Shown in pieces: positions 46,051 to 46,317 of a stretch of 64,000 nucleotides of DNA. The stretch is from Escherichia coli (GTDB lineage Bacteria; Pseudomonadota; Gammaproteobacteria; Enterobacterales; Enterobacteriaceae). The notes beneath the pieces were generated by a model. The model did not search any database. It was not told the origin of the DNA and was given only the letters and a program-made list of their open reading frames with translations. Within the stretch, counting starts at the first letter, position 1; each line of letters begins with the position of its first letter. A program made the translations under genes and the position numbers. The stretch lies in NCBI RefSeq assembly GCF_045037415.1, contig NZ_CP173438.1. One strand, 5' to 3'.

Positions 46051-46149
46051 GTGTTGATAACAAGCCGGGTCAGTATCGCAAGATGCAGGCCCGGCTATTT
46101 ATGATGGGCAGAGAGCCGTCGCCCAAAATGACATGAAGAGATAATAACT

Positions 46150-46260
46150 ATGGATGTCATGAGAAGTGTTCTGGGAATGGTGGTATTGCTGGCTATTGCG
46201 TTTTTGCTGTCAGTAACCTGATGAGTGCTACTATTGCAGGATTCTTTATTGGTTTAGCGT
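46150..46260 (+). pseudogene. nupX: Deletion remnant of nucleoside permease nupX (N-terminal 22 codons joined out of frame to last 15 codons)
   Basis: atggatgtcatgagaagtgttctgggaatggtggtattgctggctattgcg... encodes MDVMRSVLGMVVLLAIAFLLSV then stop; downstream frame encodes NLMSATIAGFFIGLA*; both ends parallel intact paralog psuT. Confidence 0.75.
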
Positions 46261-46317
46261 AGTGCGCAATTTATGAGCCGGATAAGATGCGGTCAAGCGT
46301 CGAATCCGGCAACATTG

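Follow-up and report, generated by a model that had tools for sequence, protein, structure and literature searches.

The closest described counterpart of the locus studied here is the nupX gene of Escherichia coli K-12 (b2161, formerly yeiJ), which encodes a CNT nucleoside transporter of the NupC/NupG family. When expressed from a plasmid, NupX is a low-efficiency transporter of uridine and cytidine, and for PsuT no uptake of uridine, cytidine, or xanthosine was detected (PMC11241209). RihB is a cytidine/uridine hydrolase (PMC10526354). The psuT gene (yeiM) belongs to the psuK-psuG-psuT pseudouridine cluster, and its product is a paralog of NupX (89% identical) with the same domain architecture.

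The second point of comparison is a class of mutation. Deletions between short direct repeats (microhomology deletions) were classically described in lacI; in such events, a short repeat is present at both ends, one copy is kept, and no foreign DNA is introduced. The nupX locus in the window (the whole 64,000-nucleotide stretch of E. coli DNA that was analyzed) has the same properties, but its repeat is only 3 bp long and the span is 1.1 kb, so that the homology is weaker than at typical hotspots. Judged from the alignments, the nupX stub is a pseudogene remnant left by a short-direct-repeat deletion, a well-known kind of event. We conclude that it is a case of ordinary inherited gene decay and that it reveals no new mechanism or system. 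A search of the available literature found no paper describing this deletion.

Anatomy of the nupX remnant

Breakpoints were placed by BLAST against K-12 nupX (L003) and against the closest full-length allele, that of strain 85.0412 (L002, identical to the allele of strain 536). Homology on the left ends at 46216 and homology on the right begins at 46214 or 46215, leaving a gap of 1,138 bp relative to K-12 and of 1,139 bp relative to the 1,252-bp frameshifted 536-type allele. Full-length alleles of B2 type and B1 type have TAA at both ends of the missing segment (in the contexts GTCAG-TAA-ACAA and TTTC-TAA-CCTG), and a single copy of this direct repeat is retained in the window. Alignment to the full-length alleles revealed no foreign DNA at the junction. 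In K-12, the right end reads TCCAAC, which leaves only 2 bp (AA) of microhomology. The preliminary description had proposed a clean internal deletion of 1.1 to 1.2 kb with a junction near GTAA, and that the first 22 codons of the gene are joined out of frame to the last 15; the alignments and translations agree with each of these points and define the TAA microhomology. The stub that it put at about 110 bp is real, with an exact length of 113 nt (46150-46262).

Other sources of the deletion were considered. An IS-mediated origin was rejected, as no IS sequence is present at the junction; the target pattern of IS5, YTAR, fits the right end (CTAA) but not the left end (GTAA). No longer direct repeats or inverted repeats were found bracketing the junction, where the homology amounts to 3 bp and complementarity inside the deleted ends is weak and GC rich. 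Farther out, the junction is bracketed by two copies of a 7-bp direct repeat, CTATTGC (46193-46199 and 46231-46237), which some full-length alleles extend to 8 bp (CTATTGCA). This repeat was discarded as the source, because a deletion between its copies would be 1,176 bp long and in frame, which is not the event observed.

The region that holds the stub is bounded by the stop codons of rihB (46050) and yeiI (46318). The ATG at 46150 starts MDVMRSVLGMVVLLAIAFLLSV, matching the first 22 codons of nupX, after which come T and a stop codon; translation of 46215-46262 gives NLMSATIAGFFIGLA and a stop, in a frame different from that of the 5' remnant. K-12 NupX has the N-terminus MDVMRSVLGMVVLLTIAFLLSVNKKK and the C-terminus NLMSATIAGFFIGLA. 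The window thus shares with K-12 the genomic slot, the leader, and the first 22 and last 15 codons but lacks 379 of the 416 codons and has the two ends out of frame, so that no transporter can be made. In full-length B2 NupX, which matches TIGR00804, the Pfam domains are Nucleos_tra2_N (residues 8 to 81), Gate (99 to 195), and Nucleos_tra2_C (201 to 410); the deletion takes codons 23 to 401, nearly all of these three transporter domains. What the window keeps, residues 1 to 22 and 402 to 416 in different frames, does not form the continuous ORF of about 400 aa with three domains that characterizes a CNT transporter.

The remnants derive from nupX rather than from its paralog. From the 3' remnant onward, 204 of 207 nt are identical to the nupX 3' end and downstream DNA of strain 85.0412, and the 3' end itself is 100% identical to B2 nupX versus 89% (40/45) identical to psuT. 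In the 5' remnant, residues V3, L8, and L19 are of nupX type, whereas psuT has I3, V8, and V19. The gene order was confirmed, and the position between rihB and yeiI, together with the closer similarity of both remnants to nupX than to psuT, identifies the stub as what is left of the nupX ortholog. The PGAP/RefSeq annotation marks the first 66 nt of the stub as "hypothetical protein, incomplete, missing C-terminus," i.e., as a partial pseudogene without the name nupX. This feature should carry the label nupX pseudogene.

Features of the nupX region in the window and, in the last line, of the full-length frameshifted allele
Feature	Coordinates	Strand	Basis or remarks
psuT, intact CNT paralog	42964..44214	+	416 aa, 89% identical to K-12 NupX; TIGR00804, 518 bits
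yeiL, CRP/FNR-type regulator, intact, divergent from rihB	44281..44979	-	232 aa; annotated yeiL in identical genomes
rihB, pyrimidine ribonucleoside hydrolase, intact, upstream in the rihB-nupX pair	45109..46050	+	313 aa; NCBIfam NF007417 equivalog, 726 bits, residues 1-313
rihB-nupX intergenic leader, intact	46051..46149	+	165/166 nt identical to full-length L002
Strong hairpin in leader, 9+5 bp stem, then UAUUUAU	46063-46096	+	RNA fold -36 kcal/mol, z = -4.8
nupX 5' remnant, start codon and codons 2-22	46150..46216	+	Translation; alignment to K-12 and 536-type nupX
Residual 23-codon ORF, MDVMRSVLGMVVLLAIAFLLSVT and stop, behind native nupX start region	46150..46221	+	ORF list, translation
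TAA microhomology, deletion junction, one repeat copy kept	46214..46216	+	Overlap of two BLAST segments; breakpoint contexts
nupX 3' remnant, last 15 codons and TAG, other frame than 5' remnant	46215..46262	+	Translation
REP-like GC-rich hairpin between the convergent nupX and yeiI stops	46277..46310	.	Fold -25.8 kcal/mol, z = -4.1
yeiI-type sugar kinase, intact	46318..47406	-	362 aa; NCBIfam NF007416, 814 bits, full length
Frameshifted nupX allele	2751-4002 of L002		Strain 85.0412, identical to 536

The genes around the stub are in good order. The products of rihB, the yeiI-type kinase gene, and psuT match NCBIfam equivalog or subfamily models over their full length, and RihB (WP_000415422.1) is annotated in carriers and noncarriers of the deletion alike. 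The yeiI and yeiL ORFs are intact in all loci compared (20 for yeiI), and those of yeiL, rihB, yeiI, and nfo are all intact in 9 of 9 sampled B2 carriers. Unlike nupX in the window, psuT is intact. These results uphold what had first been noted about the surroundings, namely, that the promoter-proximal leader and the flanking genes are intact and that the kinase and the hydrolase remain; the paralog psuT, which had been placed 3 kb upstream, lies at 3.2 kb. In the rihB genes of the nine B2 carriers, 24 polymorphic sites fall in synonymous codons and 4 in amino-acid-changing ones, and RihB is identical in eight of the nine. The gene still looks to be under purifying selection after the loss of its cognate permease, and this retained constraint implies that the RihB hydrolase is independent of that permease.

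Two segments of the neighborhood are unusually variable. In psuK, psuG, and the 5' part of psuT (window 40000-44000), the alleles of B2 genomes are about 19% divergent from those of non-B2 genomes (approximately 190 to 197 mismatches per kb across psuK-psuG), compared to about 1 to 2% in neighboring genes; such divergence suggests either a long-standing dimorphism of alleles or replacement by DNA from another species. The yeiI gene (window 46259-47400, including the nupX 3' end and the intergenic DNA) occurs in two very divergent forms, one of K-12 type and one common to B2 and B1, and in strains HH45 and HH97, yeiI is a mosaic of both forms. Across 20 loci, yeiI has 101 amino-acid-changing and 121 synonymous polymorphic sites. 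Downstream of its nupX stop codon, K-12 carries approximately 52 bp of additional inserted sequence.

Distribution and consequences of the loss

To find the junction in other genomes, a 46-mer centered on it (46193-46238) served as the probe, with arms too short to initiate a match where the gene is undeleted. Among 5,426 complete E. coli genomes, 970 contain this sequence, in each case as a single chromosomal copy. A rihB-nupX leader of B2 type (46040-46170, at least 99% identity) was found in 1,069 genomes, and approximately 967 of the 970 carriers fall among them; about 90% of B2-type loci are thus deleted. In some carriers (e.g., JJ1887 and an O25b:H4 strain), a 601-bp locus is 100% identical to that of the window. 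Further carriers include a strain labeled O25b:H4-ST131, ABU 83972, an O18:H1 strain, Nissle 1917, ATCC 25922, DSM 30083, NU14, APEC O18, and IMT5155; the carriers comprise ST131, ST73-type, and related B2 strains. At least 80% of nupX is retained in 4,466 genomes, in which the reading frame was checked in few loci only. The B2-type loci that keep the gene include those of canine strain 317, A24, K56-43-un, an ST80 strain, and an O16:H6 strain.

Given the same junction in many genomes of one clade, the deletion allele is a B2-wide lineage marker and not a strain-specific event, and the junction can serve as a simple and nearly diagnostic marker of most B2 genomes. NupX is missing from major B2 strains of clinical and probiotic importance (ST131-type strains, ABU 83972, Nissle 1917, ATCC 25922, and the type strain DSM 30083), and results on nucleoside uptake and metabolic models based on K-12 are therefore not directly transferable to them. 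This caveat aside, the value of the observation is mostly one of bookkeeping.

B2 also holds a second inactivated form of the gene. A group of at least 27 genomes that includes 536, F11, and 85.0412, a lineage that we take to be ST127, has a full-length nupX (1,252 bp) with an additional G in a G-run, which PGAP labels "frameshifted." Because this G-run lies inside the segment that is deleted in the window, the 536-type frameshift is a separate and independent inactivation within B2. The two pseudogenes have nearly identical flanks, but one is full length with a frameshift, whereas the other has lost 1,138 bp.

In the course of events that we consider probable, nupX of the window is an inherited wreck. 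A single illegitimate microhomology deletion between the two TAA copies, perhaps independent of RecA and due to slippage or a process akin to end joining, would have removed 1,138 bp and with them codons 23 to 401, most likely once, in an early ancestor of phylogroup B2. Homologous recombination would then have reshuffled the flanks and occasionally moved the allele into genomes with non-B2 flanks, and the loss of the gene would have been tolerated. Such tolerance may be understood from the low efficiency of NupX and from the other carriers that remain, namely, NupC and NupG, which are also nucleoside carriers, and the 89%-identical PsuT. As no uptake of uridine, cytidine, or xanthosine was detected for PsuT, it may not be a substitute for NupX. 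The substrates of RihB would presumably arrive by other carriers, so that the loss of NupX would cost little, and its functional consequence is probably small.

It could be argued that inactivation of NupX was positively selected in B2 or ExPEC strains, e.g., because a toxic nucleoside is avoided or a cost is saved, and that selection explains both the near fixation of the allele (approximately 970 of 1,069 B2-type loci) and its spread by recombination; we regard this as unlikely. The frequency is accounted for just as well by drift and by hitchhiking within a small number of clones that have succeeded worldwide. The independent frameshift in at least 27 genomes of 536/F11 type and the retention or introgression of the junction in non-B2 flanks are in line with selection, but some B2 lineages (those of 317, A24, ST80, K56-43-un, and O16:H6) are intact, and at least 80% of nupX persists in nearly all genomes that lack the junction (which make up about 82% of the total), with the frame checked in few loci. 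A long-term stationary-phase evolution experiment lists nupX, with 4 mutations, among the genes that were hit repeatedly (PMC7858067), which weakly suggests that selection can favor nupX changes. We think it quite unlikely that the loss is advantageous specifically in B2 ExPEC, as could be read from at least two knockouts within B2 combined with spread or retention by way of very short recombination patches (in HH45, HH97, and EcN_Sk). If that reading were true, the locus would be an example of a small, selected "loss-of-function allele sweep."

Probable single origin and reshuffled flanks

The history of the junction was approached through its flanks, which were compared over 3,120 columns (3.1 kb) by means of a distance matrix and a plain neighbor-joining tree without support values. 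Carriers of the deletion are not monophyletic on this tree, which is built from a visibly mosaic locus. The haplotype shared by ABU 83972 and the O18:H1 strain is separated from the full-length ST80 and O16:H6 alleles by 7 differences and from the 536-type allele by 13, compared to 18 for an ST131-type carrier and 19 for carrier 19AR1321. At a synonymous SNP only 26 bp from the junction (46188), all four combinations with the deleted and full-length states occur.

Taken at face value, an identical junction on three flank haplotypes and the polyphyly of the carriers could mean that the same TAA/TAA deletion arose repeatedly, in the ST131-type lineage, in other B2 lineages, and in HH45, at a site where local sequence or structure favors slippage. 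The parental right end needed for this, TCTAAC, is common among full-length alleles (842 genomes). We nevertheless judge recurrence to be very unlikely. The microhomology is only 3 bp long, and nupX offers 9,628 alternative deletions of at least 50 bp with at least 3 bp of homology, of which 236 have at least 6 bp; no longer repeat or convincing inverted repeat singles out this junction. The approximately 4,400 non-B2 genomes yield only three carriers, each with recombination mosaics at the locus. The paralog psuT of the window has TCCAAC and not TCTAAC, i.e., no TAA pair equivalent to that of nupX.

The three carriers with non-B2 flanks are HH45 (L007/L022), HH97 (L009/L024), and EcN_Sk (L021). 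In HH97 and EcN_Sk, a core of B2 type, from about 46147/46188 to 46302/46410, lies inside non-B2 flanks. Over 24 kb, EcN_Sk is similar to HH97 except in the junction core and in the psuK-psuG-psuT segment, where it is of B2 type; recipient-type DNA is kept exactly where homology breaks down. The notion that EcN_Sk (NZ_CP172017.1; from stool, Herdecke, Germany) is a Nissle genome with a small patch was dropped in view of this 24-kb comparison. It has 108 mismatches in 7 kb relative to ABU 83972, resembling HH97 rather than Nissle or ABU 83972, and is either a Nissle reisolate with a large recombinant tract or a different strain.

HH45 is clonal with PapRG-06-3, a B1-type strain with full-length nupX, at 0 to 1 mismatch per kb over about 25 kb. 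Its yeiI, however, contains a foreign stretch of K-12-like sequence, located 0.9 kb from the junction in a kilobase that has 52 mismatches. At base 46217, next to the TAA, HH45 has C, whereas its closest full-length relatives (PapRG-06-3, GB089, and 09-00049) have T, as do 198 genomes in total. A deletion arising in situ in the HH45 lineage would read GTAATCTG; the sequence observed is GTAACCTG. The C in place of the lineage T indicates that the junction was probably imported. SNPs of recipient type lie on both sides of the junction, at distances of 14 bp (left) and 13 bp (right), as an independent deletion in HH45 would have it, and they confine the donor-type tract to at most 28 bp (46201-46228). 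Such a tract is shorter than normal RecA-dependent exchange needs, and this counts against the explanation that we prefer. Overall, the mosaic flanks and the donor-type base of HH45 favor a single origin, which would have been followed by recombination, over a deletion hotspot. The locus shows recombination that is able to rewrite flanks right up to an indel.

Leader, residual reading frame, and assembly

The hairpin in the rihB-nupX leader is conserved, occurring in both full-length and deleted alleles, and may weaken the read-through that reaches nupX or the stub. It was not called by a simple terminator scan, and in scans for promoter and terminator consensus sequences, sites were no more common than in shuffled sequence, with nothing at the stub beyond the folded hairpins. 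The REP-like hairpin downstream was untouched by the deletion and is identical in carriers and in full-length alleles of the B2/B1 type. Rfam searches at gathering thresholds gave no match in 46051-46317.

With the native start region and the leader intact and the short ORF conserved in all carriers examined, the stub might have acquired a new role by encoding a hydrophobic peptide of 23 residues that functions as a small membrane protein. We find this scarcely credible, since the youth and low diversity of the allele account for the conservation, there is too little variation to test constraint, and the peptide has no family match.

The preliminary description had raised the concern that the gene body was removed in this assembly by a collapse between psuT and nupX, which share 79% identity at the DNA level and 89% at the protein level, have the same orientation, and lie 3.2 kb apart; this is virtually impossible, because the identical single-copy chromosomal junction is present in 970 independently assembled complete genomes, both remnants are of nupX type and form no psuT/nupX chimera, and a collapse of the paralogs would delete yeiL and rihB, both of which are present.

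Elsewhere in the window, matches above the Rfam gathering thresholds are naRNA4, a REP-derived nucleoid-associated RNA (62425-62502, plus strand), a tRNA (13979-14052, minus strand), and an L25 ribosomal protein leader (17768-17793, minus strand).
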